Shown in pieces: positions 32,670 through 50,053 of a stretch of DNA of 50,053 nucleotides; positions within the stretch are counted from its first letter, which is position 1, and each line of letters opens with the position of its first letter. The stretch spans positions 1-50,053 of the forward strand of contig JAGHAQ010000041.1 of assembly GCA_021161425.1 (NCBI GenBank), in the 5' to 3' direction. A program made the translations under genes and the position numbers. This DNA is from Candidatus Tharpella sp. GTDB lineage: Bacteria; Desulfobacterota; Anaeroferrophillalia; Anaeroferrophillales; Tharpellaceae. The notes beneath the pieces were generated by a model. It saw only the letters and a list, made by a program, of their open reading frames with translations, did no database searches and had not been told where the DNA came from.

Positions 32670-32687
32670 GCTTGTCTCTTTTTTACG

Positions 32688-33842
32688 TTAGCTGTCAAGC
32701 CAGTTACACTCAACACTTGACAGTTGTTCCCGGTTTTCAACCACTTCTGTGATAGTCTCGGGAAAGACCTCTTTGCCGCCAAGACTGATCATGACATCAT
32801 TAATCAGAGGTCTTTGCGGCAGATTGTAGAGGGCGGCGCGAACCTCCTGGCTCAGGGTTCCGCCGACCCCGTAGGAGCAGGCCCGGTTCAAGACTATAAC
32901 CTGTTTTTTATCTTTTAACGCTTCACACAGTTCCCGATTGGGAAAGGGGCGCAGAAGACGTAATTTAATGAGGTCTGTCGGAGTACCGTTCTTGTTCAAT
33001 TCGGCAACCGCTACGCGAACGGTTCCGGTCATCGCTCCACAGCAAAGCAACGCTGTGTTGCTCTTCTCATCTCCCTCTGGACAACGCATAACCGGCTGGT
33101 AGCAACGACCAAATTTTTGCGCAAACTCTTCTTGACATTGGTCAAGAACCGTTAGGGCTTCGGTCATGGTTTCGGAGAATGTTTTTTTCAGCTCATAGAA
33201 GAGATCGGGATGGGCTGCGGCACCAAAGGTCAACGAATTGTCGGGATCGAGCCGGTACGGTGCTTTGTAGGCCGGCAGATAGTCATCGACTATCTGCTGG
33301 TCGGGAACCAGAAGTCGTTCCATCGTGTGAGAGAGGATAAAGCCGTCAATCATCACCATGATCGGTAGCATCAACTGCTCGCTGGCTTTGTAGGCTATGA
33401 TGATCGTATCGAGAGCCTCTTGTGAGGTTTCGCAATAGATCTGTAGCCAACCGGTGTCGCGCTGGGAAAAACTGTCACTTTGGTCACTCCAGATATTCCA
33501 GGGAGCGCCTAAGGCGCGGTTGGCATTGACCAGAACCAAGGGCAAGCGAGCTCCGGCAACCCAGTGCAGGATCTCATGCATCATTGCCAGACCCTGTGAA
33601 CTGCTGGCTGTAAAAGAGCGGCTGCCGGTCGAAACCGAGCCTAAAACCGCAGCAATTGCCGACATCTCCGACTCGACTTTGATATATTGACTTTTTAGTT
33701 CGCCGCTGTCGACCATCTCGGAGAGGGTCTCGATAATATGGGTCTGGGGGGTTATAGGATAGGCTGAGATTACTTCCGGACGGCTCAGCCTGACTCCATG
33801 CGCGATCGCATCGCTGCCCAGTAGGATGGCTTGTTTGTGCAT
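32688..33842 (-). CDS. 2-oxoacid:acceptor oxidoreductase alpha subunit (PorA-like)
   Basis: AYPITPQT, VESE.SA, TASSSQGL..MHE and NRAL..PWNI..D..D motifs. Start placed at ATG 33842. Confidence 0.9.
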   Translation of the reverse strand: MHKQAILLGSDAIAHGVRLSRPEVISAYPITPQTHIIETLSEMVDSGELKSQYIKVESEMSAIAAVLGSVSTGSRSFTASSSQGLAMMHEILHWVAGARLPLVLVNANRALGAPWNIWSDQSDSFSQRDTGWLQIYCETSQEALDTIIIAYKASEQLMLPIMVMIDGFILSHTMERLLVPDQQIVDDYLPAYKAPYRLDPDNSLTFGAAAHPDLFYELKKTFSETMTEALTVLDQCQEEFAQKFGRCYQPVMRCPEGDEKSNTALLCCGAMTGTVRVAVAELNKNGTPTDLIKLRLLRPFPNRELCEALKDKKQVIVLNRACSYGVGGTLSQEVRAALYNLPQRPLINDVMISLGGKEVFPETITEVVENREQLSSVECNWLDS

Positions 33843-33843
33843 G

Positions 33844-35457
33844 TTAATGATCCTCCTCCATCTCAATCACCCCACGCGGACAGATCGCGGCACACTGACC
33901 ACAGCCTTTACAGTGATCATAATCAAAGAGTACCCTTTTGTCAGGGTTACTTTCCTCTAGGTCGATAGCAATTGCAACGTCAGGACAGAAGAACCAGCAG
34001 ATGCCGCAGGCGGTACAGCTACCGCAATGAAAACAGCGTTCAATCTCGCTTTTCATCTGCTCTTCACTTAAGGCTTGTCGAATCTCGGAAAAATTCTCTT
34101 TTCTGATTCGGCTGTCGAGTTCCGGGACGCTGACGGCCGGTTTTTTGCTGTAGTATTCGAGATGAAGTTGATCATTCTCGACAATGACCGGGTTTTCCGA
34201 ACCTTCGTTGACATCTATCGATGGAGTTATCTCTAATTGCTTAAGGATATTTTCGGCCGCCCGGCGCCCGGAAGCTAGAGCTTCGGCTACCGAGGCTGCA
34301 CCATGGTCAAAATCTCCCGCCTTGATGACCGAATCATTATTATCAAAGGCAAGATCGCTTTCCTGGCCGATGGCCGCGATCAAGTAGTCGGTTTCAATCG
34401 TCTTTAGAAAAGTTCCGGCATTGATCCGGCCGGCGTTGTTTTGGGTCTGGTGGATGTTGAGTTGCAAAGTGTTGGCAACGGTCTCTATCTTTTCAACGAC
34501 TTCCTCTTCATTGATTAACAGCCCCTCTTCAAGGGCTTGCTTTTTTTCCTCTTCATAAGCCGGCATTTCGGCAATTGTCCGTCGGTAAACGATTTCGACC
34601 TGTTTGCCCAGCCGCAAGAGAGAGCGGGCTGTATCGAGGGCTGCATTGCCACCGCCGACAACAATGAAACGCTGACCGTCAATATTTTCGCCCCGGTTGA
34701 TTGCCGCCAGTATTTCCAGAGCACCTTTTATTTGTGGGATAGTGCGCCACGGGGTCGGCAGGCTGGAGTGTTGCAGGCCCGGAGCCCAGATAATGTTATG
34801 ATACTCTTTTTTAAGTTGCAGCAGTTCTGATGCTTCAATATTGCGATTGCACTGCAAATCAATATTGAAGCTTGTGAGTAGATTGTCTATCTCCTGATCA
34901 AGAATAGAGCGCGGCAAACGGTAGGCGGGGATACCGTAACGTAAAAGTCCACCAGCCGTCGGGGCTTTTTCGAAGATAGTTACCTTGAGACCTTGGCGGG
35001 CGAGAAAAAAAGCAGCGCTTAAACCCGCCGGTCCGGCACCGATGATGGCGATCTTTTCAGTTTTTTTTTCGGCGCTTGCGGGATGTGGATACTCTAGCCC
35101 CAGATCTCCGAGATAGCGTTCCAAGTCACCGATTAAAACCGCTTCATCAAATTCTTGGCGATTGCAGGCGCTCTGACAGAAATGCGGGCAGACGCGGCCG
35201 GTGACGGCCGGCATCGGGTTGGTGTCGCGCAAGAGATCCAGAGCTTCCAAAGGTTTGCCGGAAGAGAGTTTGTCAAGGTAGGTGGCAATTGGAATATTTA
35301 AAGGACAAGCCTGACGACAAGGGGAGTCTTTGGCAACCAGGTGGGGGCGAAAAAATTTCCAGTTTCCGGTCAGGTTGATCGCAGTTGAGGTTGCCGATAT
35401 CGGCAGACCTCTGAAATCACCGTTTTGAATGGCTTTTACGTGTTTTAGTTTGGTCAT
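33844..35457 (-). CDS. PorD-like delta subunit with an inserted GltD-type FAD/NAD(P)H oxidoreductase
   Basis: N-terminal TGNW...RP, PC..ACP and GRVCPHFC..AC, GAGPAG, GGGN.A.D, YRR, and C-terminal CTACGICWFFCP plus CKGCGQCAAICP. Confidence 0.85.
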   Translation of the reverse strand: MTKLKHVKAIQNGDFRGLPISATSTAINLTGNWKFFRPHLVAKDSPCRQACPLNIPIATYLDKLSSGKPLEALDLLRDTNPMPAVTGRVCPHFCQSACNRQEFDEAVLIGDLERYLGDLGLEYPHPASAEKKTEKIAIIGAGPAGLSAAFFLARQGLKVTIFEKAPTAGGLLRYGIPAYRLPRSILDQEIDNLLTSFNIDLQCNRNIEASELLQLKKEYHNIIWAPGLQHSSLPTPWRTIPQIKGALEILAAINRGENIDGQRFIVVGGGNAALDTARSLLRLGKQVEIVYRRTIAEMPAYEEEKKQALEEGLLINEEEVVEKIETVANTLQLNIHQTQNNAGRINAGTFLKTIETDYLIAAIGQESDLAFDNNDSVIKAGDFDHGAASVAEALASGRRAAENILKQLEITPSIDVNEGSENPVIVENDQLHLEYYSKKPAVSVPELDSRIRKENFSEIRQALSEEQMKSEIERCFHCGSCTACGICWFFCPDVAIAIDLEESNPDKRVLFDYDHCKGCGQCAAICPRGVIEMEEDH

Positions 35458-35464
35458 AATCAAT

Positions 35465-36040
35465 TTATGGGTTGATAACGGTTTCGTAGGCTTGGCGCAA
35501 TGCTTTCTCATTGTCAGCAAGGCGGGCGGGGATGAAGCTGGGAAGAGCCTGGATCAGACTCTCCGGTTTGACCAGGCCGCTGACTTTAGCCAAAGCTCCA
35601 AGCACCGGGGCGTTGATCAAGGGCATGATTTTATTGCCCAGTTTGTGTTCCAGAGCAATACGATTGAGATTTATGGTGATAATTTGATATGGTGGCGGCG
35701 ATTTGGATTGAGTTGCCGAACCGAGATTGAAACTATCGGCCGGCTGGTCGCTGTTGATGAGGATGAGACCGCCCTTTTTGAGGCCGTCGGTGACCGCCAC
35801 GGACTCAATCAGGCGGGCCGCCATGACGATCACATAGTCGGGTTTAGTAACGCGGCTGCGGATGTTGATAAAAGTGTCGTCGGCCCGCACGAAGGCGGCC
35901 ACCGGTGCTCCCCGTCGTTCAGCTCCGAAGGTTGGAAAAGACTGGGCGTAACGACCTTCAAGAAAGAGCGCCTGGGCCAGAATTCGGGATGCGATAACGG
36001 CACCCTGGCCGCCGCGGCCATGAAAACGAATCTCCTGCAT
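35465..36040 (-). CDS. 2-oxoacid:acceptor oxidoreductase gamma subunit (PorC-like)
   Basis: MQEIRFHGRGGQG, FP.FGAERRGAPV.AF.R and N...LGA motifs. Start at ATG 36040. Confidence 0.92.
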   Translation of the reverse strand: MQEIRFHGRGGQGAVIASRILAQALFLEGRYAQSFPTFGAERRGAPVAAFVRADDTFINIRSRVTKPDYVIVMAARLIESVAVTDGLKKGGLILINSDQPADSFNLGSATQSKSPPPYQIITINLNRIALEHKLGNKIMPLINAPVLGALAKVSGLVKPESLIQALPSFIPARLADNEKALRQAYETVINP

Positions 36041-36276
36041 AATAAATAGTTGCTTGTTGAATATTAATTTATAGATATATCTGTTGTTGGTAAAGACGAC
36101 CTTCTGTTTAGACTTGGCAAAAAAGAATGTCAAGTTTTAAAGTAACTTTTCAGTTTGGTCTAGGCTATTTCCCCATAAATTTCAGCGATGTCGGCTTATT
36201 TAACCCGGTTTACTATTATTTTTTGACTTATATCCGGTGTTAATCATTTGTGGTTTGAACAACCATGATGTTTCTG

Positions 36277-36306
36277 TTGACAACGCATCCTATTTAAAAC
36301 TATTCT
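36277..36306 (+). promoter_or_regulatory. Candidate sigma70 promoter of the helicase operon
   Basis: TTGACA-N18-TATTCT, ending 38 bp before the GTG start. Confidence 0.45.
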
Positions 36307-36343: not shown

Positions 36344-39194
36344 GTGAATACAGTTAATACCATAGCGCCGGGTGCCAGGGTCGTAATTCGGGATGCCGAA
36401 TGGCTGGTGCGGAAGATGGACAGGACCTCAACCGGCGGATTTGCCCTGACTGTGGTCGGCATTTCGGAACTGGTTAAGGATAAAGAGGCAATTTTTCTTG
36501 ATGAGATTGACACAAATATCGAGGTTCTTGATCCCGTAGATACCAAACTGGTGCCCGACACCTCCAGCTCCTATCAGGGTTCTCTACTTTACATGGAAAG
36601 CCTGTTGCGACAAATTCCTCCAACAGACGAAAAACTCTACGTCGGCCATAAAGCCGCCATGGATCACGTACCCTATCAGCTTGACCCGGCAATTCAAGCC
36701 TTGGAGCAACCCCGACAACGCATATTAATTGCCGATGCCGTTGGCCTTGGTAAGACTTTGGCCTGCGGCATTCTGGTCAGCGAGTTGATTCGCCGAGGCA
36801 AAGGTAAGCGTATTCTGGTACTGGCTGTAAAAAGCATGCTGACCCAGTTCCAGAAAGAAATGTGGTCGCGCTTCACCATTCCTCTAGTTCGCCTTGATTC
36901 GGTCGGCATTCATCGGGTTCGTTCCAAAATCCCCACCAATCACAACCCTTTTTACTATTACGACAAAACCATTGTCTCTATCGACACGCTGAAGCAAGAC
37001 ACCGAATATCGCAACTATCTGGAAAACGCCTATTGGGACATCATCGTTATCGATGAAGCTCACAATGTCGCCCAGCGTGGCAAAGGTTCTTCGCAACGCG
37101 CCAAACTGGCCAAACTTCTCTCCGGACGATCCGATACTTTGATCATGCTATCAGCAACCCCGCATGACGGCCGGGCGCGAAGTTTTGCCAGTTTAATGAA
37201 TATGCTTGATCCCACAGCCATCGCCAACCCGGACAACTATGGGCCGGAGGATATCAAAGGTTTATGTATCCGCCGTTTTAAAAAGGATATTCAGGATCAG
37301 GTGCAGAGCGCCTTTAAAGCCAGAGAGATCAGCAAGGCCTACTGTCAGGCGACCAATGTCGAAGAGGTTGCATATGATATTCTGTCTGAAATGCAATTTG
37401 CCAAGTTGGACCAACACAAAGGTGCCGGACAACTCTTTAAAACTACCCTGGAAAAAGCGTTGTTCTCCAGTCCTGCGGCCTGTCTTTTAACAATTTCTAA
37501 CCGGATCCAGCGTCTTAAAAAAGATGATTCCCCGGAAGCCTTACAAGATATTGAACGCCTTTCGGAACTTGCCGTAGCAGTATTCGACATCACCCCTGTC
37601 AATTTTTCCAAATATCAGAAACTTCTCTTCGTTATCTCCGACAAAAAACATGGCTATGGCTGGACCGGAAAATATAAGCATGACCGTCTCGTCATTTTCA
37701 CTGAACGCATCGAAACCTTACGTTTTCTGGAAATGCATCTTACCAAAGACCTCAAATTGAAAAATAATCAAGTCGCTATCCTGCATGGTACCATGCCTGA
37801 TGTGGAACAACAAAAAATCGTCGAGGATTTCGGCAAGGAAGAGGCCCCGGTGCGCCTGCTAATTGCTTCTGATGTCGCTTCTGAGGGTATCAACCTACAT
37901 TACTTAAGTCATCGACTTATTCATTTTGACATCCCCTGGTCACTCATGGTTTTTCAGCAACGAAATGGACGGGTTGATCGTTATGGTCAGGAGCACACTC
38001 CCTATATTCTCTATCTAGTTAACCAAAGCGTAAACGACAAAATCAAAGGCGACATGCGTATTCTTGAGCTCCTCATCGCCAAGGATGAAGAGGCCGTAAA
38101 AAATATCGGCGACCCCTCCGCCCTCATGGGTGTCTATGACATTGATGAAGAGGAGCGGATAACTGCCAAAGCCATTGAAACCGGTATCAGCAGCTTGGCT
38201 TTTGAACAGAAATTAAACCAAAATAGTGATGAGGCTTTCGACCCGCTCGCCCTTTTAATGGGTGGGAATGAGTCCGACAACAAACCACCAGCAGCCGAAA
38301 ACCGTTTAAGCTCCATGCCCACCCTCTACAATGATGATTTCTCCTACCTTAAAGAAGCCATTGAGCACTTAAGGCAAGCGGAGACCCTTACAGGCCGATT
38401 TTGATGACGACCTACAACAGATATCCCTAACCGCCACCAAAGACCTTAAACATCGACTTAAATTCACTTTGCCCAGCGAGGTCTGGCCGGATGACGAAAT
38501 CTTTGTTCTATCTGCCGATCCTGATGTGATTCAGAAAGAGATCAAACGCAGTCGTAAGGATGAAAATGCATGGCCAAACATCCACTACCTCTGGCAGCAC
38601 AACCCGATCCTTGCCTGGATTAACGATAAGGTTGTTGCTGAATTCGGTCGGCATGAAGCACCAGTATTAACTCTTTTCAGTACTTTGGCTCAGGGCGAAA
38701 CAGTCTTCATTATTTCCGCCCTGATCCCTAACCGCAAAGGCCACCCTCTGGTTCATCGCTGGTTTGGCGTCACAGTTAAGCAAGATGATTTCCAGCAAAT
38801 TGAAAAGTTCAAACCTCTGCTAAATAGAACCGGTCTCGGCAAAAATCGATTCCCCAGCAAAGAGACCCAACTTGACCTTGATTCTCTGCGACGTCTTTTG
38901 CCCGAAGCTGTACAGCAGGCCAAAATCTATATGAGTGAGCAACGGCAAACCTTTGAAGATATGATCAACCCCAAACTCCAGGAACAGCTTGATAAATTAG
39001 AGCGACTTAAAGGCAAACAATACAAACAGCTTGAACTCTTCTATATGGAGAAAAAGCAAATCAACAAGAAAGAGCAGGAAAAGCGCGAAATCGAGCGCAA
39101 ATTTGATGAATTCATCGATTGGGTTGAAGAGACCATGACGACTGAAGACAAGCCCTTTATTCAGGTTGTTGCCGTTTTGCAGGGGGCTCAATAA
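36344..39194 (+). pseudogene. SNF2-family (DrmD-like) helicase interrupted by a +1 frameshift near 38385-38390 (ORFs 36344-38404 and 38469-39194)
   Basis: PG..V..RD.EW.V start, LIADAVGLGKT, DEAH, LSATP, SEGINL and QRNGRVDRYGQ motifs. The downstream frame is open from 38373, and removing one base gives one ORF of about 949 aa. Confidence 0.8.
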
Positions 39195-42100
39195 TGGCCG
39201 GTTTCCTTCAAGATCCGATCTCAATAATCAATCTTATCTCTGACAATCTCCGCGATCGTTACAGCAGATTTCAAGTTTTAAAGGAAATCATTCAAAATGC
39301 TGATGATGCAGGGAAAGGCAACCTAAATATCCACTTAGAATATGGTATTGTCAACGGTTTATCCTCCGCTGAGCACCCACTTCTCCAAGGACCAGCTCTA
39401 TTCTTTCTTAATGATGGTACGTTCTCTGATTCTGATGAAAAAGCTATACGTTCATTCGGTCTGAACCAAAAAGCAGAGGATGCAGCCTCTATTGGAAAAT
39501 TTGGCTTAGGCATGAAGAGTGTTTTTCACTTCTGCGAAGCCTTTTTCTTCTTGGCGCAAGATAATAATAAATCTTATTCAAATATTCTCAACCCTTGGTC
39601 GGGAAGTGATGATTTTAAATCAGTGCATGAAGATTGGGAAGGGTTTACGAAGAGTGATGCTGAGCTGATAAGAAATCGCTTGACCCGAGTTTTTGATAAC
39701 TTGGAAGAAAAGCGAGAATCCTACTTTCTAATATGGCTTCCACTACGTATGAGAAAGCATCTCCAAGTTGATGAAACTGAAGTTGGTAGTATTGTTTCAG
39801 AATTTCCCGGTGATGATGCCCGCCAACTAGCTTTTCTGGATGAAAATATATTACCACAAAAACTTGCTGCCCTGCTCCCTTTACTACGTTGCCTGGAAGG
39901 TATAAGATATTGGCGTGAACAAGAAACTGGCGATCTTGAACCGGCCTTTCACATTCTTCTAAAAGATTATTCCGCACGGATTAAAGGTTTTAAAGAGGAA
40001 AACTGCAGTTTCTCTTTTAGCGGTGAAGTCGAATATTTTGTTGGCAACGACAAGCCATCGTTGCAATCATATCACGGTAAAGAGAGTTTTTTACAATCTA
40101 AAACCCTCTCCTCACTTAAAAAATCCGACTTATGGCCCAAAAGCTACGTGCGTGACGAAAATGGTATTAGCCAAGAAGCCCCCGACAAAGCCAAGCCCCA
40201 TTGCGCCGTATTTTTTTCGCGTTCACCAACCATACAGAAAAGTGAATTAAGACTACGCTGGGCCGTTTTCCTGCCGGTCAAAGCGGGAGAAGAAAATATT
40301 CAGTGTAAAGGTGATATTTCTTTTCGTTTGTTTTTACACGGCTATTTTTTTGTTGATGCAGGCAGGACGGATATTGACGGATTACAAGATAATTCATCAT
40401 CAATAACTTTAAACGGCCAGCTAAAAAACGAAGCTGATCTTCGTAAAACTTGGAATATCTATTTGGCCGAAAAAGGTATCTTAAGGTTGATTTTGCCAGC
40501 CTTGGGCGAATTTACAAGAAAATCGAGACTTTCCTTTCTTGAAATCTATAATCTCTGCACAGCACTTAAAGAAACAAATCTTTTTTGCGAAAAAAGAGAG
40601 CTTATTTGCAATTCATATCAGTGGCTGTGTACTATTACGCCCACCAAACAAGTGTGGAAACTTGTCCCCAGAGACAAAAAAATCCTTCCTTTGCCAACAC
40701 CTCCTAAATCAGTATCTGAGAGACCATGGCAAACATTTACAAAACTTCAACACTTAGACAATGATGTTGTCTTTATTTTAACTAATGTACCGCATTTGAT
40801 GTGCTCTCGTTTACCTCAATGGGATGAAACCGACCTTGAAATATTTCTTGATTCTACTGTTGTAAAAAATTTCAACGACCAGGGCCGTTTGGAATATATG
40901 TTAGATTTTTTGTTCAGTAACGGCGTTAGACCTTTTCTTAAACTACCATCTTTACAAAACAAACTACAGGAACTTCTCCGACAGGCTTTCATCGAATTTG
41001 GTGATGACCTCCGTCAATATCGTCAAAAGATTCATCAATATGTTTCTCTAATTCTACCGGAAAGAAGATATGTTATTAATAATGTTGACCAGAAAATATT
41101 TTGCCAACTCCAAAAAAGTCGAACTGATTGTCTTGTCCTGAATAACTATTTTGATGCAACGGAAAATCCTGGCAAAGCTGATCTCTCTTACGAAGACAGT
41201 CTAAAACTTTTTCATCAACTAAACGATTTAATTCTCAAATACAGCAATACTGAAGATCAAGAAATTGTAAATTCATGCCGAGTGATCATTCGGAAAATAT
41301 TGCAATCCATCAAAGAGGAAGATCGCCATAGACTGCTTAATAGTTCGGCAACCACTTTAAAATTATTAGAAGGGTACGATTGCCAAAACGACACCCTTAA
41401 GTCTCTTTCTGCCGAGGAAATTCGGAAATGTATGAATGATGGTTTATTATTTATTTACTCCTCGGGTATAAATGACCGGCAAAAACATGGACTGGCACCA
41501 AAGTTACAAAAAGTAGTCAAAGGTCGAGTTTTACTGATTCCTAGCGAAACGGGCAAATTACTTTTTGGTTCAAACCATAGTTTATTACCTTGTCATTCAA
41601 ACAGTATACTTAATTGTCTTGGATCGCGAGAACAACGATTGCAATCAATAGAAAACCGGCTAAATTTACTGGCAGATGTTGCCGGTGCTGATCTTCTATC
41701 AGAACAACGTGTACGAGGATTGCGGTACCTTCTCCACGGTACTGAAGACCGATTTTACGATTGTTCTACACTATGGGTTTCCGGACATGAACAAAGTCCT
41801 GTTTGGATAAAACTCTGGCAACAGGTTAAAGAAACCGAAAAAGATAACTGGAATTTACTGGAGAGAACACTGGTCGGTAAAATTCCATCAGATAAATGGA
41901 CAGATCTATCAATCCGAGAAATCAAACCTGAAGGAATTCTGGGTGAGCTTAGAAATAAGGGTACAGATGTTTTAACAGGTAATCTTTTCAACCTGGACGA
42001 GCGTAATGCTGTTCTAAAAGAACTTATCAGTGATGAGCAGCTTTGGAAACAGTTACCGTTTCATGAAACGGTAAGCGGATGCTTGGTCAGCATAACAGAA

Positions 42101-45100
42101 AAGTCTTATCTCGAAACAGGTATTTACCTGCCCGATGAATTGCAAGACCATGTCAACATAATCAAACCTTCAGATGACTTTACCATCAGTAGACAACAAC
42201 GTGATTGGCTTATCCCTCTTTCCAAGCAAGACGTAATCAAAACGGCTTTAAAATATGATCAGGCTGTAAATTTCTGGCAACTGATAATGGACAACCTTGA
42301 GCACCCCAGTTTGGACGCCGACCTAAACTATTTGTTGCGTAATGCCGCTTGGATACCCGACGTCAATTACAATCCTGTAAAGCCATCAGAGGTAATCTAT
42401 CTTGAAAGTATGCAGGATGAGGTAGACAGATTGTTGGTGGCTGCTCGTAACATTTTCTGGTCACCCAGCAAACTGCACAAAAAAGTGCAAAACCACCCAT
42501 CCTTTGCAATGCTTAAGGAATCCTATTTTGCAAAAGATCACGAGGGGCTTGAGCAATTTGGTCTACTGTTGGGCGAAACAGAAGAATATCATATCGGCAA
42601 CTTTGGCAAAGGGGATAATTTCAAACGAGTACTCACTGTATGCTCCCGTATTCCCTTGAACCTGAACCTTCCAGGGTGGACGTTGCTATCCAATGCTTCT
42701 AAAATTTACTCGTTGGATATAATTGAAGAACACCTTTTGCCGGAAATGTTAAAAACAGTCAGCATGGGGAAGATCTTCAACACATTAAAATGGTTGCAAA
42801 ATGAGCACGTCAGAACCGGCCAAAGTGAAAAGAAAAATGTTTTAGTTGCTTTTAACGCATATCTTTCTGCCTTTGTTAATGAGGGTGGAAGCAATCAAGA
42901 TCTTTTCCAATTTCACTTGTTGAACCATGAAGAAAGATGGAAACCAACCAATCAACTTTGTGTCGAGGTCCAAGGTGTTTCGGAAGCCTTTTTGTTGGAT
43001 TCTGTTCAAAGAAAAATTTTATCTAAAATTATTTTTTCAGGTGATCAACATTTCCAAAATAATGTTATTCAACTGAATGCCAGAATTGATGACACTAAAG
43101 AATCTCCAAAACACATTAAGCAGTACTTTTCTCTCTGGAAAGGACTTGTAGCTGATGAAGTGATTTGTGCATTCATTACCCTGCTTGGAGATGACACGGA
43201 AATCTGCTCCCTGGCTAAACAATACCAAGGAAGGCATTCTGTCGATTGGATACGACATGAAATCCCCTGGAACCCAAGCAATTATTGGAGCATTAGCAAA
43301 CAGGAAGCATTTGCAAAACACAGAGTCGTCGTTAAAATTCACGATGACACAGTTGTTAAGACATATTCAATACGTGGTGATAAAATTGAGCTACCTGTAA
43401 GTAAAAATATTGATTCACTGTTTATAAATTGTGTTTTCGGTCTTTCTGCTGGAAGTTATAGAGTCTCAAAATTCAATTTAAGGAATTTTCACCCTGGAGA
43501 GAAAACGAGTGCTGAACTGACAAAACTTCTCAAATCTTCAGCTGAAATCATCTTGAAAGGTGCTTTCAAACAGGAAAACTATAATCTTGATTTGCTATGG
43601 CAAAAATTGGATAAATCAGAGCAACTTGACATTAAAGTAGCCCAAAGCCTCATTCTCAATCATATGCCATTTTATTTGAGACAATTGGGAATACATAAAC
43701 ACCCCATATTGCAGAACCTACTACATCAATGGCACGATGCCTGTTGTAGACAAGAAGAATATTATGATTCACCAAATAAAAGACAAAAATATGAGGATGA
43801 AAAAAGGATGCATTTGCAAAAGATACGTGATCTTTTGCTAAATGATGGGGCGGCTCAAAAGATTGTTTTGAATGCTGTTCGTGCAAAGATTAAAGACTTT
43901 CAGTATACGCCTGCCAGCATTCCTTTTGAATTATTTCAAAATGCTGATGATTCTATGGCAGAACTCGTAGAAATAAAATCACATCAAAATACTGTTCCAA
44001 GGAATGTTAAACGATTCTTGATCCTTGATGATGGTAAATCAATGACTTTCATCCATTGGGGAAGAGCTATCAATGCGGATGGTGGTGCCGGGTTTCCAGG
44101 ACGTAAAAGAGGATTCCATTATGATCTAGAAAAAATGTTGGTACTATCTTCTTCTGATAAATCTGAAAACAACAGGGTCACCGGAAAATTTGGCTTGGGT
44201 TTCAAAAGTGTTTTATTGGCTAGCGATAAACCAAAATTGATTAGTGGTCGCTTGTCAGTAGAAATTATTGCTGGTCTCTGTCCGATACTTCTTAAAAATA
44301 CAGGAGAGCTACGCCAAAAGTTACATGAACATTCACCAAGTAAACAATATCAGGGCACACTTGTAGAAATGCCATTAACCGAAGCATCATCATTAGATGT
44401 AATGGCGTTTTTTCCTGACCTGGCTGGTATCATGACCATCTTTGCTAAACAGATTCGCCAAATTGATATTCATGGGAAGCAAAGCCATTCCTGGGAATGG
44501 ATACCTGACATAATACCTTTATCAGATACAACTTGTCTTGAAATCGGTGAATTGAGCCTGCCAGGTAGTTCAAGACAAAAAGAATTGTTACTTTATTTCA
44601 GGATTGACAAAAGTGGGGTCTTGGTGGCTTTGGGGCCGAAAGGATTTCGACCTCTTCCAAATGAATTACCAGCGGTGTGGGTGGTTGCGCCAACGGGGGG
44701 GCAAGGTCCTGGTTTTTCCATTAATGGTTCCTTTGAACTTGATGCTGGGCGGGCCAACCTTTCCAGTAGCAGTGCTGGCAACCAGGAAATGGCTAAAAAT
44801 CTTGGACAATCTTTTGGAAAACTGCTCTCGGAACTCTACAACTTGACCGAAGATCAAAATCAGTGGGAAGGTATAAAGGGTAAATGTCGTTTAGAAAAAG
44901 ATCTTACTCCCTACCTCTTCTGGTCAAGTTTATGGGAAGTATTAGGTAGGGGATTGTCTTTCACAGGGGGAAATGAAGCAGTTCGCTTGGTTATAACGCA
45001 AGTATTAACTGAAGAAAGTGGCCTCGGCTATCTACTTAGACATTCCGATGCAATGCCGAATGGGCTATGGGGTAAATTTCAGGCCTTAACCAATCCGAAA

Positions 45101-46750
45101 AAGATCAAGACAGTTCTCAAGGGTTGTTTGGAACGGGAAACAGTTTTCAAAGGACTTTCAAGCTGGGAACCGTTAAAAAACATACTGACAGATCCAGGCT
45201 CTACAATTTCTGAATATACATACAATGTCGCAAGAAAGATTACATCAGATATAGGTCTAACAACTGATCAATGGCGTTTCGTACACCTTGATGATCTACT
45301 TAATGACTTCACATCAAGTGGCGGAGAACTAACACCTGAAGCGGCAACCGTGCTTGGAGGAACGCTCAACCATAGAAGCTTAGATCAGGATGAATTTAAG
45401 AAGGAAAAAGAGCAAATCATCAGGGCGTTAAGATCTTTTTCCTTCAAAGCCTTGGACGGTTCTCGGCAGCCATCCAGTAAGCTTCTGTTTCAAAACACTC
45501 ATAAGCGGGCAAATCCCGATGAAGCAAAGCGGGCGGCCTTTGCCCCGGACAGATATATTCTGTCTCCTGAATATGAAGCCAACTGTCTGGATCTCTTTTT
45601 TATCTGTCGCGAGAAGATCGCTATTCCGGCAGATGAAATGGTAACCTGGTTGCTTGACGCCTCGAACGATACAAAGAGAGAAAAAGGATTGAGCTATCTG
45701 CTGGAAGGTGAACATGGAAGAAGTACGGCAAAATCTTTGAGAGGACGCGGTTTACGTGGTACGTGGTTAGACGAGCTAAGTCCGACATCAACACTTCTCG
45801 CAGACTGGGCAGCAGATGATCGTATTGATCTGATTTGCAGAGATCTCAAATCGACAGATGAACTTCGCCAATTTGAATTTTCGGATGAAGAAGATTACTC
45901 TTTACTCGAAAATGAATTAGGCGGATATGCCCCCAAAGAGGTTTTACAGAAAATTTATTGCTGGTGGGCTGCCAACAAAAGTAAATATCTGTTCAAATAT
46001 GAACGCAAAACATATCCTGCAAATATCTCCATTACCTTCTTAGAAGATGATGTTGGCCGCATCGACAGAAAATCATGGTTGACATTGTTCAGTCTCTCCC
46101 ACTTTCATACAATTGGTCGCCAGAGAGACGTACAGCATAAAGGTTTTATTGATAAGTGTATAAGTAGGGGGTGGTGGGATACTTTTTCTAAAGAGCAACC
46201 AGATGAGAGATCTGATGAATGGATGAAGGTTTTGGAAGATTATATCAATGAACAGGTTGATGTAAGCGAGTATGAACTCTGGATGAATCATTTTCCAGCT
46301 ATCTATAAATTTGCTCGGTGGATGGAAGACTATAAAGAGGCATTTCTTTGTATCGAACGTATGGACACTTTAGATTCAAATACAATCGCTGGGATATTAA
46401 GGCCAAAAACAAATACCCAATTTCAGGGTGGCGGAATAAATGCCCCACCCAATGAAAAAAGTTTGGGAATCGGAGTGTGTTTTGTCCTGCGTGAACTAAA
46501 AAGAAAAAAAATCATTAATAATGACCTGGTTATCCCATACTGCTATGTCCCGACCAAAAGTATTCGGGATTTTTGTAACTTACTTGGCTGTAACGTGCTA
46601 TCGGAAAATGGCGGAATTTATAATTCCAAAAAGATTTATGATTTTCTTTACCAGCATTTAGATGAACAAGCTACATTCCTTGATTGTTACGATATACCAT
46701 TACGATTTGTAGCAAATGACCCCGATCTCCTTAAATCAATTTTGAATTAG
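39194..46750 (+). CDS. 2518-aa protein with two sacsin-type GHKL/HSP90-like ATPase modules
   Basis: Module 1: KEIIQNADDA, NDG.F, IGKFGLGMKSVF, HGYFFVDAGR. Module 2 (from about aa 1575): FELFQNADDS, HWG, TGKFGLGFKSV, NGSFELDAGR. The start overlaps the upstream stop (TAATG). Confidence 0.85.
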   Translation: MAGFLQDPISIINLISDNLRDRYSRFQVLKEIIQNADDAGKGNLNIHLEYGIVNGLSSAEHPLLQGPALFFLNDGTFSDSDEKAIRSFGLNQKAEDAASIGKFGLGMKSVFHFCEAFFFLAQDNNKSYSNILNPWSGSDDFKSVHEDWEGFTKSDAELIRNRLTRVFDNLEEKRESYFLIWLPLRMRKHLQVDETEVGSIVSEFPGDDARQLAFLDENILPQKLAALLPLLRCLEGIRYWREQETGDLEPAFHILLKDYSARIKGFKEENCSFSFSGEVEYFVGNDKPSLQSYHGKESFLQSKTLSSLKKSDLWPKSYVRDENGISQEAPDKAKPHCAVFFSRSPTIQKSELRLRWAVFLPVKAGEENIQCKGDISFRLFLHGYFFVDAGRTDIDGLQDNSSSITLNGQLKNEADLRKTWNIYLAEKGILRLILPALGEFTRKSRLSFLEIYNLCTALKETNLFCEKRELICNSYQWLCTITPTKQVWKLVPRDKKILPLPTPPKSVSERPWQTFTKLQHLDNDVVFILTNVPHLMCSRLPQWDETDLEIFLDSTVVKNFNDQGRLEYMLDFLFSNGVRPFLKLPSLQNKLQELLRQAFIEFGDDLRQYRQKIHQYVSLILPERRYVINNVDQKIFCQLQKSRTDCLVLNNYFDATENPGKADLSYEDSLKLFHQLNDLILKYSNTEDQEIVNSCRVIIRKILQSIKEEDRHRLLNSSATTLKLLEGYDCQNDTLKSLSAEEIRKCMNDGLLFIYSSGINDRQKHGLAPKLQKVVKGRVLLIPSETGKLLFGSNHSLLPCHSNSILNCLGSREQRLQSIENRLNLLADVAGADLLSEQRVRGLRYLLHGTEDRFYDCSTLWVSGHEQSPVWIKLWQQVKETEKDNWNLLERTLVGKIPSDKWTDLSIREIKPEGILGELRNKGTDVLTGNLFNLDERNAVLKELISDEQLWKQLPFHETVSGCLVSITEKSYLETGIYLPDELQDHVNIIKPSDDFTISRQQRDWLIPLSKQDVIKTALKYDQAVNFWQLIMDNLEHPSLDADLNYLLRNAAWIPDVNYNPVKPSEVIYLESMQDEVDRLLVAARNIFWSPSKLHKKVQNHPSFAMLKESYFAKDHEGLEQFGLLLGETEEYHIGNFGKGDNFKRVLTVCSRIPLNLNLPGWTLLSNASKIYSLDIIEEHLLPEMLKTVSMGKIFNTLKWLQNEHVRTGQSEKKNVLVAFNAYLSAFVNEGGSNQDLFQFHLLNHEERWKPTNQLCVEVQGVSEAFLLDSVQRKILSKIIFSGDQHFQNNVIQLNARIDDTKESPKHIKQYFSLWKGLVADEVICAFITLLGDDTEICSLAKQYQGRHSVDWIRHEIPWNPSNYWSISKQEAFAKHRVVVKIHDDTVVKTYSIRGDKIELPVSKNIDSLFINCVFGLSAGSYRVSKFNLRNFHPGEKTSAELTKLLKSSAEIILKGAFKQENYNLDLLWQKLDKSEQLDIKVAQSLILNHMPFYLRQLGIHKHPILQNLLHQWHDACCRQEEYYDSPNKRQKYEDEKRMHLQKIRDLLLNDGAAQKIVLNAVRAKIKDFQYTPASIPFELFQNADDSMAELVEIKSHQNTVPRNVKRFLILDDGKSMTFIHWGRAINADGGAGFPGRKRGFHYDLEKMLVLSSSDKSENNRVTGKFGLGFKSVLLASDKPKLISGRLSVEIIAGLCPILLKNTGELRQKLHEHSPSKQYQGTLVEMPLTEASSLDVMAFFPDLAGIMTIFAKQIRQIDIHGKQSHSWEWIPDIIPLSDTTCLEIGELSLPGSSRQKELLLYFRIDKSGVLVALGPKGFRPLPNELPAVWVVAPTGGQGPGFSINGSFELDAGRANLSSSSAGNQEMAKNLGQSFGKLLSELYNLTEDQNQWEGIKGKCRLEKDLTPYLFWSSLWEVLGRGLSFTGGNEAVRLVITQVLTEESGLGYLLRHSDAMPNGLWGKFQALTNPKKIKTVLKGCLERETVFKGLSSWEPLKNILTDPGSTISEYTYNVARKITSDIGLTTDQWRFVHLDDLLNDFTSSGGELTPEAATVLGGTLNHRSLDQDEFKKEKEQIIRALRSFSFKALDGSRQPSSKLLFQNTHKRANPDEAKRAAFAPDRYILSPEYEANCLDLFFICREKIAIPADEMVTWLLDASNDTKREKGLSYLLEGEHGRSTAKSLRGRGLRGTWLDELSPTSTLLADWAADDRIDLICRDLKSTDELRQFEFSDEEDYSLLENELGGYAPKEVLQKIYCWWAANKSKYLFKYERKTYPANISITFLEDDVGRIDRKSWLTLFSLSHFHTIGRQRDVQHKGFIDKCISRGWWDTFSKEQPDERSDEWMKVLEDYINEQVDVSEYELWMNHFPAIYKFARWMEDYKEAFLCIERMDTLDSNTIAGILRPKTNTQFQGGGINAPPNEKSLGIGVCFVLRELKRKKIINNDLVIPYCYVPTKSIRDFCNLLGCNVLSENGGIYNSKKIYDFLYQHLDEQATFLDCYDIPLRFVANDPDLLKSILN

Positions 46751-46759
46751 AGAGAAATT

Positions 46760-49429
46760 ATGCTTAAATTTTCCGCCGGACAAACCGTCTTTCATACTCA
46801 ATTCGGTACCGGACATGTTGAGTTCAATAAAGAAGAAACAGTTATTGTTCGCTTCGATCATGGTTTGGAAGAGTGTATTGCCGGGTCGCTGGAAATAAAG
46901 TCAGATATTGCTGAAAACATTGACAGAGGGAAGCTTTCATCGCCTACTGAAACGGCCTCCCGCGTTTTAGCTGAAGCTATTATTTCGGTAAATGATAATT
47001 GGGGGGTTTTTTCAAAATCAAGAATTGCCCTGCTTCCCCATCAGCTTTGGGTTTGTCACCGAGTTCTTCGGCAATGGCCGGCTCATTATCTGGTTGCTGA
47101 TGACGTCGGGCTTGGCAAAACCATTGAAGCTGGCCTTATTTTATGGCCTTTGTTGGCAAAAGGGCTGGTCAAACGTCTTCTGGTTATAAGCCCAGCCTCA
47201 CTGGTCGAACAGTGGCAATTTAGATTACGGGATATGTTTGATATCCGTCTAACCCGTTATCTTCCTGAGGCGGATACCGCCCGTTCAGATTTCTGGAACA
47301 CTCAAAACCAGATTGTTGTCTCTCTACAAACCCTGCGGGATGATCACAAGGGCCGTCATCAACGCCTGCTTGAGGCCGAGCCCTGGGATCTGCTTATTGT
47401 CGATGAGGCCCATCATCTAAATGCAGACAAAGATTCCGGAGCTACCCTGGGTTATCGCCTGGTAGATAATCTGGTTCGAAAAAATCTGACCAAATCCAGA
47501 ATATTTTTCACCGGCACACCCCATAAAGGCAAAGATTTCGGTTTCTTTGCCCTTCTGAAATTATTGCGACCTGATCGGTTCTCTCCAAACAAACCAATAC
47601 ATCAACAACTTCCCCACCTTCGTGACGTAATTATCCGCAATAATAAACAGAACGTTACGGACATGGAAGGTAAAAAGATTTTCAAACCGATAACGGTAAG
47701 CTCTGAAACCTATTCTTACACCGAAGAAGAAACATCCTTTTATAATATTTTAACAGACTTCATCACTTCAGGGAAAACATACGCTTCCTCCCTTTCCAGC
47801 AATGATCAGCGGGCGGTTATGCTTGTCTTAATCTCCATGCAAAAGCTTGCCTCAAGTTCAGTTGCCGCAATCAGAAAAGCTTTAACCGGACGCCTGTCAC
47901 GCTTAAAAGAAGCGGGTAACAATTTGCAACAGGCCCAGAAACGACAACAGGTTATCCGAGAAATTTTATCCCGTGCTGACGAATCAACCGTTTCATCTTT
48001 GACCGACGAATTGCAGAAACAAGATGAACTGGTTGCCGGATTATCATCGTCCCTGCCGTTGATGAAAGATGAAATCCCCTTATTGGAAATATTAGTAGAC
48101 GCAGCTGACAACATAACATACGAAACAAAAATCAAGAAAATTATCGAAATACTTGAAACTCGCTACCGTAATCGCGCAGTTCTTTTATTTACAGAATATA
48201 AAGCAACCCAGGCATTGTTGATGTCTGAACTAATGCAAAAGTTCGGCGATAATAGCGTTACTTTCATTAACGGTGACCATAGAGCTGAGAATGTAGCTGG
48301 TTCTGACGGTAAACTTCGGACAATCTCTCTCAAAAGAAATGACGCAGCCGATCTCTTCAATGATGGCAAGGTTCGTTTTCTGGTCTCTACTGAGGCCGCT
48401 GGTGAAGGTATTGACCTTCAGGAATCATGTTTTTCTCTTATTCATGTTGATCTGCCATGGAACCCGATGCGGCTTCATCAACGTGTAGGCCGTTTGAACC
48501 GGTATGGTCAAAAACATCCGGTTGAAGTCATTAACTTGCGTAATCCAGACACGGTTGAATCCCGTATCTGGGACAAATTGAATGAAAAAATCAGTAGCAT
48601 CATGCAGGCCCTGGGCAGTGCTATGGATGAACCTGAAGATCTGTTGCAACTGGTTTTAGGAATGGCGTCCCCTTCTTTATTTACAGAGCTTTTTACAGAT
48701 GGAGCAACTGTTCCGGCCGACCGGTTGGACAACTGGTTTGACACCAAGTCAAAAACATTCGGTGGAAATGATGCTATTGAAACCGTCCAGAACCTGATTG
48801 GCAACTGTTCCCGATTCGACTACCAGGATCTCAAAAGAATCCCAAAAAAAGACCTCGAAGACCTCCAACCTTTTTTTGAAACCATGCTCCTTTTGAACAA
48901 ACGGCGAGTATTACATGAGGATTCAGGTTTGTTATTTAAAACCCCGGATGAATGGTTGAAAGATGCCGGAGTCAGAAGGCGTTATGAAGACTTGGTTTTT
49001 TCTCGAGACTTAAAAGGGAAAGATGCGGCTCTGCGAGTTGTCGGCGTGGGACATAAAGTGTTTGATCAAGCTTTAATGCAAGCCGGCGGATACGATGCCT
49101 GCCTCACACAATTTTCCGACCTAGAAGAGCCATTGGTAATCTTTAAAATATTTGACCGAGTCACGTCCCAGGATGGTAATGTTCGACAAGTTATAATCGG
49201 CATTAAGGGTAATAAAGATGAAATATTGCAGGATTGGCAGCTGATAGATCTGATAAATCAATTGTTAAAGTCAAAAAAACCAAGTTCTGAAAGTGAAAAT
49301 CGTCTCGAATCACAGGCATTACATAGTATTATTAAAAACTCAGAAAATACCCTCAAGCAGCATATAGAAAGTTTGAATCTTCCCTTTAGCGTACCTGAGA
49401 TTAAACCTTTGGCCCTGTTCATACCTTAA
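46760..49429 (+). CDS. SNF2-family (RapA-like) helicase/translocase
   Basis: LLPHQ, LVADDVGLGKTIE, DEAHH, FTGTPH, TEAAGEGIDLQ and LPWNPMRLHQRVGRLNRYGQ motifs, with an N-terminal G..V.H..FG.G.V small domain. Confidence 0.92.
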   Translation: MLKFSAGQTVFHTQFGTGHVEFNKEETVIVRFDHGLEECIAGSLEIKSDIAENIDRGKLSSPTETASRVLAEAIISVNDNWGVFSKSRIALLPHQLWVCHRVLRQWPAHYLVADDVGLGKTIEAGLILWPLLAKGLVKRLLVISPASLVEQWQFRLRDMFDIRLTRYLPEADTARSDFWNTQNQIVVSLQTLRDDHKGRHQRLLEAEPWDLLIVDEAHHLNADKDSGATLGYRLVDNLVRKNLTKSRIFFTGTPHKGKDFGFFALLKLLRPDRFSPNKPIHQQLPHLRDVIIRNNKQNVTDMEGKKIFKPITVSSETYSYTEEETSFYNILTDFITSGKTYASSLSSNDQRAVMLVLISMQKLASSSVAAIRKALTGRLSRLKEAGNNLQQAQKRQQVIREILSRADESTVSSLTDELQKQDELVAGLSSSLPLMKDEIPLLEILVDAADNITYETKIKKIIEILETRYRNRAVLLFTEYKATQALLMSELMQKFGDNSVTFINGDHRAENVAGSDGKLRTISLKRNDAADLFNDGKVRFLVSTEAAGEGIDLQESCFSLIHVDLPWNPMRLHQRVGRLNRYGQKHPVEVINLRNPDTVESRIWDKLNEKISSIMQALGSAMDEPEDLLQLVLGMASPSLFTELFTDGATVPADRLDNWFDTKSKTFGGNDAIETVQNLIGNCSRFDYQDLKRIPKKDLEDLQPFFETMLLLNKRRVLHEDSGLLFKTPDEWLKDAGVRRRYEDLVFSRDLKGKDAALRVVGVGHKVFDQALMQAGGYDACLTQFSDLEEPLVIFKIFDRVTSQDGNVRQVIIGIKGNKDEILQDWQLIDLINQLLKSKKPSSESENRLESQALHSIIKNSENTLKQHIESLNLPFSVPEIKPLALFIP

Positions 49430-49464
49430 AATCAGGGCGAATCAATTATTTATAGTTGAAAATT

Positions 49465-50053
49465 ATGGCCATCGATATTACCGGCATCAACAACGAGAAC
49501 GAGTTTTACACCCATCATTATCTCTCCGCTATCCTGGAAAATGATTTGAAGGATGTCTTTGCGGAGTGGAAACGGCGGGATGAAAAGGATGGGGTTGTCC
49601 AACCTTATGTAACTCTCAGAAGTTTGCGAAAAAGTTTTTTCGTCACCCAAGACCTTCTCAGCCGAGAGCGAAAAAACCGTGAGCGGCTTGCGCTGCAAAA
49701 AGATTTACTGGCCGGGTTTCTCTCCGCTCTGGGTTATGAATGGCAAAATGAACTGGTCACTATGGATGATGGTTCTGTTATTCCTTTAATTGGCGGTATC
49801 AATAAAGCCGATGGCTCGCCAGATCTGTGGATTATTCAGGCCCTGGATATTTTTGCTGAGGAGGCTGATCCTCTGGAATTGCGGCTCGTTCCTGAACAAT
49901 ATCCAGACGGTGTTGAAGCAGAGAAGGTTCTTGATCTCCCTTTTACCGAGATTATCAGCAAAAATATCTTCAGCCGCAGTGAACCTCCCCGCTGGTTGAT
50001 TCTTATCAGCAGCACCCAACTTCTTCTCATTGACCGAACCAAATGGAATGAGA
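49465..50053 (+). CDS. Probable large restriction-modification-type DNA methyltransferase (DrmMI/Eco57I-like), 5' partial
   Basis: Open from ATG 49465 to the window end: MAIDITGINNENEFYTHHYL...EPPRWLILISSTQLLLIDRTKWNE. I recognise this N-terminus from MTases that follow DrmD-like helicases. Catalytic motifs lie beyond the window, so the product is inferred. Confidence 0.65.
   Translation, partial: MAIDITGINNENEFYTHHYLSAILENDLKDVFAEWKRRDEKDGVVQPYVTLRSLRKSFFVTQDLLSRERKNRERLALQKDLLAGFLSALGYEWQNELVTMDDGSVIPLIGGINKADGSPDLWIIQALDIFAEEADPLELRLVPEQYPDGVEAEKVLDLPFTEIISKNIFSRSEPPRWLILISSTQLLLIDRTKWNE

Follow-up and report, generated by a model that had tools for sequence, protein, structure and literature searches.

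A conserved bacterial gene pair encoding a giant protein with two sacsin-type ATPase modules and a RapA/DrmD-like SNF2 translocase, a candidate anti-phage module

Tiamat, which is said to have been reported originally by Millman et al. in 2022, is among the described systems to which the gene pair analyzed here is compared. In the available text of a preprint (October 2026, 10.64898/2026.09.30.754977), Tiamat is described as a standalone, ATPase-dependent anti-phage protein that combines an ATPase with a single-stranded DNase, and a helicase lies beside 14-33% of its homologues. According to the same text, Tiamat-like proteins carry other domains in place of the nuclease and are often found beside helicases (Swi/Snf included) and methyltransferases, the latter solely in the presence of a helicase. 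The preprint places Tiamat together with sacsin, presents a tree that parts a Tiamat/sacsin clade from MORC/paraMORC, and mentions multiple ATPase domains for sacsin homologues only. Eukaryotic sacsin is itself described as a chaperone (PMC3710099). MORC/paraMORC GHKL ATPases have been linked to SWI2/SNF2 helicases in operons resembling restriction-modification (R-M) systems, and the sections available describe MORC operons as usually encoding a nuclease, with ATP-driven reorganization of DNA-protein complexes as the proposed role (Iyer, Abhiman and Aravind 2008, PMC2292703). In the Hma (helicase, methylase, ATPase) system, HmaC is described as a DUF499 AAA+ ATPase and HmaA as carrying a DUF3883 nuclease. 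Here, a two-gene cassette from Candidatus Tharpella sp. is analyzed in which a gene for a giant protein (P0001) with two sacsin-type GHKL ATPase modules is followed, after a gap of 9 nt, by a gene for an SNF2 partner (P0002). The window, meaning the whole stretch of DNA that was analyzed, is an entire 50,053-nt contig (C108) of a 1.6-Mb metagenome-assembled genome (MAG) with 123 contigs and a completeness of 63%.

The two genes are an obligatory pair in both directions and evolve together. Among 5.8 billion proteins, 484 relatives of the giant protein were found at E ≤ 0.001, more than 100 of them full length (about 2400-2800 aa) with 29-51% identity to it. A scan of one genome per species gave 351 genome loci, spread over at least 17 phylum-level lineages, including Desulfobacterota, Gamma- and Betaproteobacteria, Bacteroidota, Planctomycetota, Hydrogenedentota, Actinomycetota, Chloroflexota, Acidobacteriota, Poribacteria, Binatia, Verrucomicrobiota, Cyanobacteria, Bacillota, Gemmatimonadota and Marinimicrobia; Deinococcus was represented in the plasmid search. 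The best 80 of the 351 loci were kept, and 72 of these contained the 3′ end of the giant gene together with at least 1 kb beyond it; the other eight comprised seven contig ends and one decayed copy. An orthologous SNF2 gene (>40% identity) was present downstream in 72 of 72 evaluable loci, within 200 nt and on the same strand in 64 and after a gap of 201-1458 nt in seven (L012, L014, L018, L021, L039, L070 and L074). In the first gene map, which covered 57 loci, the partner commonly starts 4 nt inside the upstream gene, and a small ORF lies in the gap in L014, L021, L070 and L074. Only in L080 (17357-20023) does the partner, at 56% identity, lie on the opposite strand, just past a split giant gene; this could be a rearrangement or a misassembly. 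The inverted partner in L080 is followed by UvrD/GajB-like and DruE-like genes.

The reverse association was examined with a profile of 30 partners, which had 533 relatives in metagenome contigs. The best 80 of these (51-76% identity) included 68 with at least 600 nt of upstream sequence, and the C-terminus of the giant protein was encoded directly upstream on the same strand in all 68. The sequence-only reading had put the two genes forward as one system, and their co-occurrence in other genomes is thus confirmed from either side. Mean pairwise identity was 52% for the partner versus 32% for the giant protein. The pairwise identities of the two proteins correlated (r = 0.66, 1891 pairs from 62 loci, with 0 of 999 permutations reaching this value), as would be expected if the genes travel together.

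The presence of two full sacsin modules in the giant protein, each with E..QNADD, GKFGLG.KS and DAGR motifs, had been read from the sequence and stood up to scrutiny. Pfam SACS (PF25794, E 3.7e-32) and NCBIfam P_loop_sacsin both matched the protein in two stretches, at about aa 19-187 and aa 1570-1686. Other Pfam or NCBIfam families were absent, also when the protein was scanned as five pieces at E ≤ 1; HATPase_c_3 scored 32.9 bits on the whole protein, with no individual stretch passing alone. Alignment of module 1 with module 2 gave 24% identity across the ATP-binding part (E 0.002), with the ..DAGR segments pairing too, and windowed BLAST of the protein on itself returned only this similarity (E 2e-4). 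Among 67 full-length homologues, the three motifs were kept in both modules in 55-67, the catalytic and ATP-lid residues (Asp-Asp, GxxGxG lid and Lys-Ser included) in 60-67, and the core Glu, Asn and Arg in 65-67. In module 1, E31 was kept in 65 of 67 homologues and E31, N35, D38 and R391 in 65-67, the transducer-like part being H382..DAGR391. In module 2, E1579, N1583, D1586 and R1853 were kept in 67 of 67, and the transducer-like part is F1847..D.GR1853. Given that the catalytic residues are kept in both modules, both GHKL sites look catalytically competent from their sequences.

AF2 models of pieces of the giant protein were built on 65-66 homologues. For the model of the second half (aa 1541-2518, mean pLDDT 90.8), the top Foldseek matches were the N-terminal and middle domains of Hsp90/TRAP1 (E 2.4e-7), with GyrB at rank 47, and a profile of the same half matched the sacsin SRR1 crystal structures 5v44-5v47. 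A complex prediction with module 1 (aa 1-440), module 2 (aa 1541-1940), two ATP and two Mg returned scores of 0.00 and 0.00 against a mark of 0.32; it was run without controls, is blind to the difference between hetero- and homodimer, and counts neither for nor against an intramolecular clamp. In BFVD, structure matches to the second half included long alignments (714-862 columns) to some phage proteins, among them an uncharacterized protein of Pseudomonas phage Zuri and a ‘histidine kinase-like ATPase’ of Vibrio phage 1.224.A, which suggests that phages may encode large Hsp90/GHKL-like proteins of their own.

The giant protein and TmtA of Tiamat are alike in having a sacsin/Hsp90-clade GHKL head with the same catalytic motifs, a long helical region behind it, a location in defense islands, and links to SF2 helicases and methyltransferases. 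The giant protein differs in having two ATPase modules rather than one and 2518 aa rather than about 1300. It also lacks DUF3684 (none at E ≤ 1 on the five pieces) and a NOV_C/DUF3883 PD-(D/E)xK nuclease, there being no Pfam match and the C-terminal 284 aa being all-helical in the model. Moreover, the SNF2 protein of the pair is obligatory, has no nuclease fused to it and comes from a specific DrmD/RapA-like family. Human sacsin (three repeats) and Arabidopsis AT5G23110 share with the giant protein tandem repeats of an Hsp90-like ATPase plus helical region and a non-repeat C-terminal domain. By contrast, the giant protein has two repeats, shows no Pfam match to UBL, J, HEPN or zinc-finger domains, is bacterial and operon-coupled to an SNF2 motor, and has post-ATPase regions that are not detectably alike. 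The pair is a helicase-linked variant of the Tiamat/sacsin GHL ATPase theme and not categorically separate from it.

The two modules are joined by a stretch of ∼1100 aa (aa ∼440-1540), as had been noted, which is conserved over its whole length with few gaps and modeled with a mean pLDDT of 90.0 (aa 430-1560). A PDB profile search with this region gave 0 matches, and comparison of its model with PDB folds gave nothing at E ≤ 0.001 and only weak matches to HEAT/ARM-type solenoids (E ≥ 0.004). These weak matches agree with the available text of the NOV preprint, in which the sacsin repeat is described as combining an ATPase with a solenoid region. The repeated W/K..P..L/I motifs that had been proposed for the linker did not hold: [WK]..P..[LI] occurs once, versus 0.78 expected from shuffles, and no significant internal repeat was detected by BLAST. 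Duplication beyond the ATPase modules was likewise rejected, given that hhalign of aa 430-1560 against aa 1541-2518 aligned only a trivial 20-aa overlap; at the level of sequence, no homology is detectable between the regions after the two ATPase modules.

The giant protein ends in a family-specific all-helical domain. It contains a G-R-x4-Q-H-R motif (R2309 kept in 53 and H2315 in 54 of 65 homologues), a QGGGI.APP loop and an invariant R2433-E2434. A profile of this domain had 1041 matches at E ≤ 0.001 (741 at E ≤ 1e-30) among 1.84 billion representatives; in 150 of the 150 matches listed it ends proteins of 256-2875 aa, all of the same family or fragments. Pfam gave only weak matches above E 0.1 on this stretch (DUF488-N3a, E 0.14), the PDB profile search of the second half matched the ATPase part and no C-terminal domain, and Foldseek searches of the second half against PDB and BFVD were dominated by Hsp90/GyrB-type matches. 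DUF6043 was rejected as the identity of the domain, being a weak Atlas lead with recognition below the mark. The domain is a candidate effector or partner-binding domain. Its R-x5-H motif and helicity hint faintly at a HEPN-like RNase, which would mirror the repeats-plus-HEPN layout of animal sacsin.

The partner is an intact SNF2 ATPase, as the sequence had suggested. It matches Pfam SNF2-rel_dom and Helicase_C, and G117, G119, K120 and T121 of Walker A and D215, E216, H218 and H219 of the DEAH motif are invariant in 30 of 30 partners, among which mean column identity is 58%. Its nearest solved relative is RapA (E 3.9e-48). CarD_TRCF_RID matched the N-terminus weakly in 2 of 30 partners (E 0.015), a lead according to which this domain may be a Tudor/CarD-TRCF-RID-like barrel as in the RapA N-terminus. 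At the other end, the C-terminal domain looks RapA_C-like, again as a lead (Atlas language-model score 0.96, with RapA_C in 11-22% of near-cluster members).

The partner also resembles DrmD of class 1 DISARM: both are SNF2/RapA-like translocases, the PADLOC DrmD model PDLC02634 matches the partner end to end (positions 4-895 of 900, 1076 bits), and DISARM parts lie beside it in the window and in Trichormus. It differs from DrmD in falling under the NCBIfam cut-offs (308 versus 610 for DISARM_DrmD and 178 versus 950 for DrmD_b) and in having as its constant companion the giant ATPase and not DrmA/B/C/MI. Identity between the partner and the DrmD-like protein encoded upstream in the window is only 25%. 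What PDLC02634 describes appears to be the cassette partner and not a component of DISARM, and care is needed with ‘DrmD’ calls based on this model. The expectation that PADLOC has no model for the pair therefore stands for one gene and must be qualified for the other. For the giant protein, PADLOC 2.0 has no model beyond ∼100 aa of the Tiamat ATPase, the TmtA models matching both modules (best 83.7 bits) over ∼100 of 1302-1782 model positions.

No published description of the giant ATPase-SNF2 pair was found, although Figures 5 and 6 and the data files of the Tiamat preprint could show such an architecture. The claim that no named system has this composition is thus upheld as regards the pair and weakened as regards its theme, given that GHKL ATPases with SF2/SNF2 helicases, often with a methyltransferase, have already been published. 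Like the pair, MORC/paraMORC systems encode a GHKL ATPase with an SF2/SNF2 helicase, often have methyltransferases nearby and are laterally mobile. They appear to belong to another GHKL clade, the best folds for the giant protein being Hsp90 and not MutL/MORC, and the pair has no recognizable nuclease. Hma shares the trio of SNF2 helicase, ATPase and methyltransferase, and its HmaA model scores 234 bits on the partner, versus 1076 for DrmD. Hma was ruled out as a matching system because HmaC is a DUF499 ATPase, not GHKL, and the giant protein has no HmaC match.

The genomic surroundings of the pair point to defense islands, the setting suggested from the sequence. The flanks differ among loci, and neighbor proteins from recurrent clusters matched PADLOC defense models in nine of nine scanned (type IIG R-M/DrmMI, PDC-S68, DruE-like, GajB/UvrD-like, Orf5/HEC-06, WYL, type II methyltransferase/mad2, type I REase and PbeA-like). 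This support is qualitative and comes from selected neighbors. Among 104 nearest neighbors drawn from 137, PDC-S68 occurred in four, DrmMI/IIG in two and DruE in two, with no family in more than four; the lack of a frequent neighbor family indicates a pair without a third constant gene. The pair of Desulfosarcina variabilis is flanked by BrxL, REase-like and OLD/GajA-like genes.

The distribution of the giant gene is patchy and its composition foreign. Of 60 genomes related to that of the host, a profile of the C-terminal domain located the gene in two, one among the 16 of the same genus and one among the 34 from other orders of the phylum. The sequence-only reading had called the gene AT-rich relative to host genes, and this is correct: its GC content is 0.396, versus 0.475 for window positions 1-36043 and a genome mean of 0.486, and none of 868 genome windows of 7.5 kb was as GC-poor. 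Decay is also seen. In L071, whose flanks match those of L043 and L055, the giant gene is spread over two ORFs and truncated at about aa 2201, with the partner lost, and one further copy (G041, C1:495335-496174) has a TGA inside the C-terminal domain; both are decayed copies. The giant gene is split at differing places in L005, L028, L030, L064, L080 and Trichormus plasmid C.

The giant protein was encoded on 7 of 72,556 plasmid records, two of them typed conjugative. Conjugative plasmid C of Trichormus variabilis ATCC 29413 carries the pair (L161/L162, 252636-294546), with the giant gene annotated as two hypothetical coding sequences (828 and 1853 aa) and its downstream neighbor as a ‘DEAD/DEAH box helicase’. 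A complete class 1 DISARM (drmD, methyltransferase, drmA, DUF1998 and drmC) ends ∼7 kb from the pair in the opposite orientation, and an integrase gene lies ∼9 kb upstream of it. The same island, compact and in a culturable model strain, also holds genes for a 1012-aa hypothetical protein, a 1223-aa helicase-related protein and a cytosine methyltransferase, and its DISARM is interrupted by an ATP-binding/DUF4435 gene pair.

These records, the nearby integrase and the foreign composition, together with the departure of contigs in four metagenome runs from the window at 36043, the left edge of the gene block, would fit a pair that serves a mobile element, in plasmid or island maintenance, competitor exclusion or as an addiction-like module, and is a passenger with defense islands. 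Most loci, however, are on chromosomal contigs and have no obvious mobility genes within 10 kb on either side (no systematic survey was made), and tblastn of the giant protein against 50,697 phage records gave no match. This explanation is considered improbable, and it overlaps with a defense role to the extent that competitor exclusion is defense in practice.

Taken together, the motor and ATPase sites are under strong constraint, and the pair has a defense-island and plasmid context, a patchy distribution and a foreign composition. An obligatory, unnamed pair in mobile defense islands of many phyla is a good candidate anti-phage system, and on balance we favor the view of it as a probable autonomous module against phages or plasmids. 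Several observations weigh against this view. Only recurrent or selected neighbors were scanned, which leaves the defense context qualitative, and in the flanks of the Desulfosarcina variabilis locus 4 of 9 scanned proteins had no PADLOC match. The reverse co-occurrence test took in only the closest 80 SNF2 relatives. The nearest solved relative of the partner is a housekeeping RNA-polymerase recycling factor, the fold of the giant protein is a chaperone fold, and Pfam, NCBIfam and partner scans recognized neither a nuclease or peptidase domain nor any other known effector domain in the two proteins.

Some of these same observations lend themselves to a role in cellular maintenance, in which an Hsp90/sacsin-like chaperone or remodeler and a RapA-like motor would act, under stress for instance, on RNA polymerase or nucleoid complexes. 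The Hsp90/TRAP1 chaperones as best structural matches, the RapA relationship with its end-domain leads (CarD_TRCF_RID and RapA_C), the failure to find a nuclease or toxin domain and the description of eukaryotic sacsin as a chaperone are all in keeping with such a role. Yet carriers are few even within the genus, and the foreign composition, plasmid copies, defense-rich variable flanks and decayed copies form a patchy, mobile pattern that is unusual for housekeeping functions. A maintenance role therefore appears quite unlikely.

As an autonomous defense module, the pair would be a self-contained, horizontally mobile two-gene cassette acting against phages or other invading DNA. The first gene would provide a scaffold in which two sacsin repeats each combine an Hsp90-like GHKL ATPase and a transducer-like part, and the second a dedicated RapA/DrmD-like SNF2 double-strand DNA translocase, the two proteins presumably forming one machine. 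The motor may track along or remodel DNA, or act on transcribing polymerase as RapA does, and the giant ATPase could be an ATP-gated sensor or clamp that decides the outcome. Given that neither protein has a recognizable nuclease domain, the effector step might fall to the C-terminal helical domain, to ATP-driven remodeling, or to neighboring or host nucleases. A more specific version of this proposal is doubtful as a whole: in it, the two unlike GHKL modules would close within the chain as an ATP-gated clamp loaded or driven by the RapA-like motor, immunity would be autonomous and proceed without a classical nuclease through the helical C-terminal domain (possibly a HEPN-like RNase) or through remodeling, and the protein would be a prokaryotic counterpart of multi-repeat sacsins.

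The gene arrangement in the window is given in Table 1. Five closely packed plus-strand ORFs run from 36344 to the contig end, and the sequence-only reading, which described a 2518-aa ORF followed 9 nt on by an intact 889-aa SNF2 ORF, agrees with their coordinates. The stop codon of the 241-aa ORF overlaps the ATG of the giant gene (TAATG), and no terminator-like site was found by consensus scan in the plus-strand intergenic gaps from 36344 onward. The cassette is probably transcribed together with the flanking DrmD-like and methyltransferase genes.

Table 1. Features of the gene block at the right-hand end of the 50,053-nt window
Feature	Position	Strand	Size	Remarks
Top promoter-like site, TTGACA-18-TATTCT	36277..36306	+		∼40 nt 5′ of first gene of the block; consensus match only
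DrmD-like SNF2 (SNF#1), N-terminal ORF	36344..38404	+	686 aa	PADLOC DrmD PDLC02621, 333 bits; outside conserved pair
C-terminal part of same DrmD-like gene, other frame	38469..39194	+	241 aa	Aligns to aa 717-958 of L018 protein
Giant gene (P0001)	39194..46750	+	2518 aa	
Giant protein, module 1	39194..40513	+	aa 1-440	GHKL ATP-binding domain: E31, N35, D37-D38, G101-G106, K108
Giant protein, inter-module region	40514..43813	+	aa 441-1540 (∼1100 aa)	Mixed alpha/beta and helical scaffold; no family match
Giant protein, module 2	43814..44893	+	aa 1541-1900	Second GHKL domain: E1579, N1583, D1585-D1586, G1664-G1669, K1671
Giant protein, following region	44894..45895	+	aa 1901-2234	Alpha/beta then helical; partly inside long Hsp90 middle-domain alignments
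Giant protein, C-terminal all-helical domain	45896..46750	+	aa 2235-2518 (∼284 aa) and stop	Family-specific; secondary structure from AF2 model
SNF2 partner gene (P0002)	46760..49429	+	889 aa	
Partner, N-terminal small domain	46760..47014	+	aa 1-85	G16, G18, F32 invariant
Partner, ATPase/translocase core	47018..48622	+	aa 87-621	Walker A and DEAH intact
Partner, C-terminal domain	48623..49429	+	aa 622-889 and stop	Conserved; no Pfam match
Type IIG R-M/DrmMI-like methyltransferase, start	49456..50053 (coding to 50052)	+	First 199 aa	Cut by contig end, where it is open; outside conserved pair

The gene upstream of the pair is represented by two ORFs whose frames overlap at 38373-38404. The first, which scores 349 bits on NCBIfam DISARM_DrmD, under the cut-off of 610, aligns to aa 6-686 of a 961-aa DrmD-like protein from L018 with 64% identity. 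In contigs of three public hydrothermal-vent runs, one base is missing at 38388-38390, at a depth of 8.57 of 8.57 (run X1), 6.62 of 12.1 (run X2) and 4.22 of 4.22 (run X3), and its loss would fuse the ORFs into one of ∼950 aa. The split in the window is therefore taken as an assembly error or a minority variant, and the upstream DrmD-like gene is probably intact. Downstream of the pair, the 199-aa ORF shares 74% identity with the N-terminus of the gene that follows the pair in L003 and 39-41% with that in L012 and L018; the L012 member scores 965 bits with PADLOC REase_MTase_IIG and 179 bits with DrmMI. The remainder of this gene was not found in the 63%-complete MAG.

A DISARM-like system surrounding the pair had been proposed, with the pair as its possible accessory. 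The first part is partly upheld by the DrmD-like gene upstream and the DrmMI-like start downstream, but DrmA, DrmB and DrmC were not seen in the window, whose contig ends 624 nt past the partner, and PF09369, used in a search for DUF1998, had no match in the 63%-complete MAG. That the pair is an accessory of a methylation-based system (class 1 DISARM, or type IIG/BREX-like R-M) and would need a self-marking methyltransferase fits the window, where it stands in one co-directional, tight block between the DrmD-like SNF2 and the type IIG/DrmMI-like methyltransferase genes, and fits the nearest relative (L003), in which a methyltransferase gene likewise follows the partner. In L012, L018, L038, L068, L009, L069 and L079, the pair has a DrmD-like gene and/or a large methyltransferase gene nearby, in varied orders. 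The same explanation draws on the filing of the partner under DrmD by PADLOC, on the complete class 1 DISARM ∼7 kb away in Trichormus plasmid C, and on the association of methyltransferases with Tiamat-like genes only alongside a helicase, as stated in the available text of the Tiamat preprint.

Against an accessory role, BLAST with the Trichormus DISARM proteins found DrmA/B/C in only 2 of 160 related loci (L011 and L111) and DrmMI-like proteins in 8 of 160, with limited sensitivity, so that DISARM parts in ∼10 of 160 loci are read as marking often-neighboring modules and not one system. The nearest neighbors are heterogeneous, with DrmMI/IIG in 2 of 104, the Trichormus DISARM has its own drmD and faces the other way, and the partner falls below both NCBIfam DrmD cut-offs. 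Relative to DrmD-like and methyltransferase genes, the pair also changes place from locus to locus, which is what independent modules would be expected to show: L018 has the four genes of the window arranged differently (pair, DrmD-like gene, methyltransferase), and similar sets are present in a few other loci. An accessory role is accordingly judged unlikely, and an autonomous module preferred.

The cassette is large, conserved and widespread, with hundreds of sequence clusters, although its annotation in the Trichormus plasmid C record is merely ‘hypothetical protein’ and ‘DEAD/DEAH box helicase’. If it is an immune system, it would represent a type built from two genes, for a double GHKL ATPase and an SNF2 motor that work with no recognizable nuclease, and it would bear on the working of Tiamat, MORC and DISARM-type motors. 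It would also offer a tractable bacterial model for tandem sacsin repeats, of relevance to human sacsin (the ataxia ARSACS) and its plant relatives.

Further observations concern the borders of the block and variation within it. Some contigs in four of four metagenome runs diverge from the window just past 36043 (36003-36049), at the end of a plus-strand ORF (35429-36049), and a strain-variable island beginning with the DrmD-like gene may have its left border at ∼36043. In one contig of run X1 (depth 6.4), two bases are missing at window position 42313, inside the giant gene, and they are present in runs X2-X4; this is possibly a broken variant or a contig error. Elsewhere in the same MAG, a 2953-nt contig (C56) ends in the N-terminus of a DruE-like giant helicase (2299-2952, 199 aa, 38% identity). 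Members of the DruE-like family directly follow the pair in L008 and L012, and the gene on C56 could be part of the island in the window. The sign of the GC skew flips near 36 kb, and the host genes directly preceding the island (31779-35520, minus strand) encode a 2-oxoacid:ferredoxin oxidoreductase (TPP-binding and POR_N/PFOR_II subunits) and a pyridine-nucleotide-disulfide oxidoreductase with 4Fe-4S domains.

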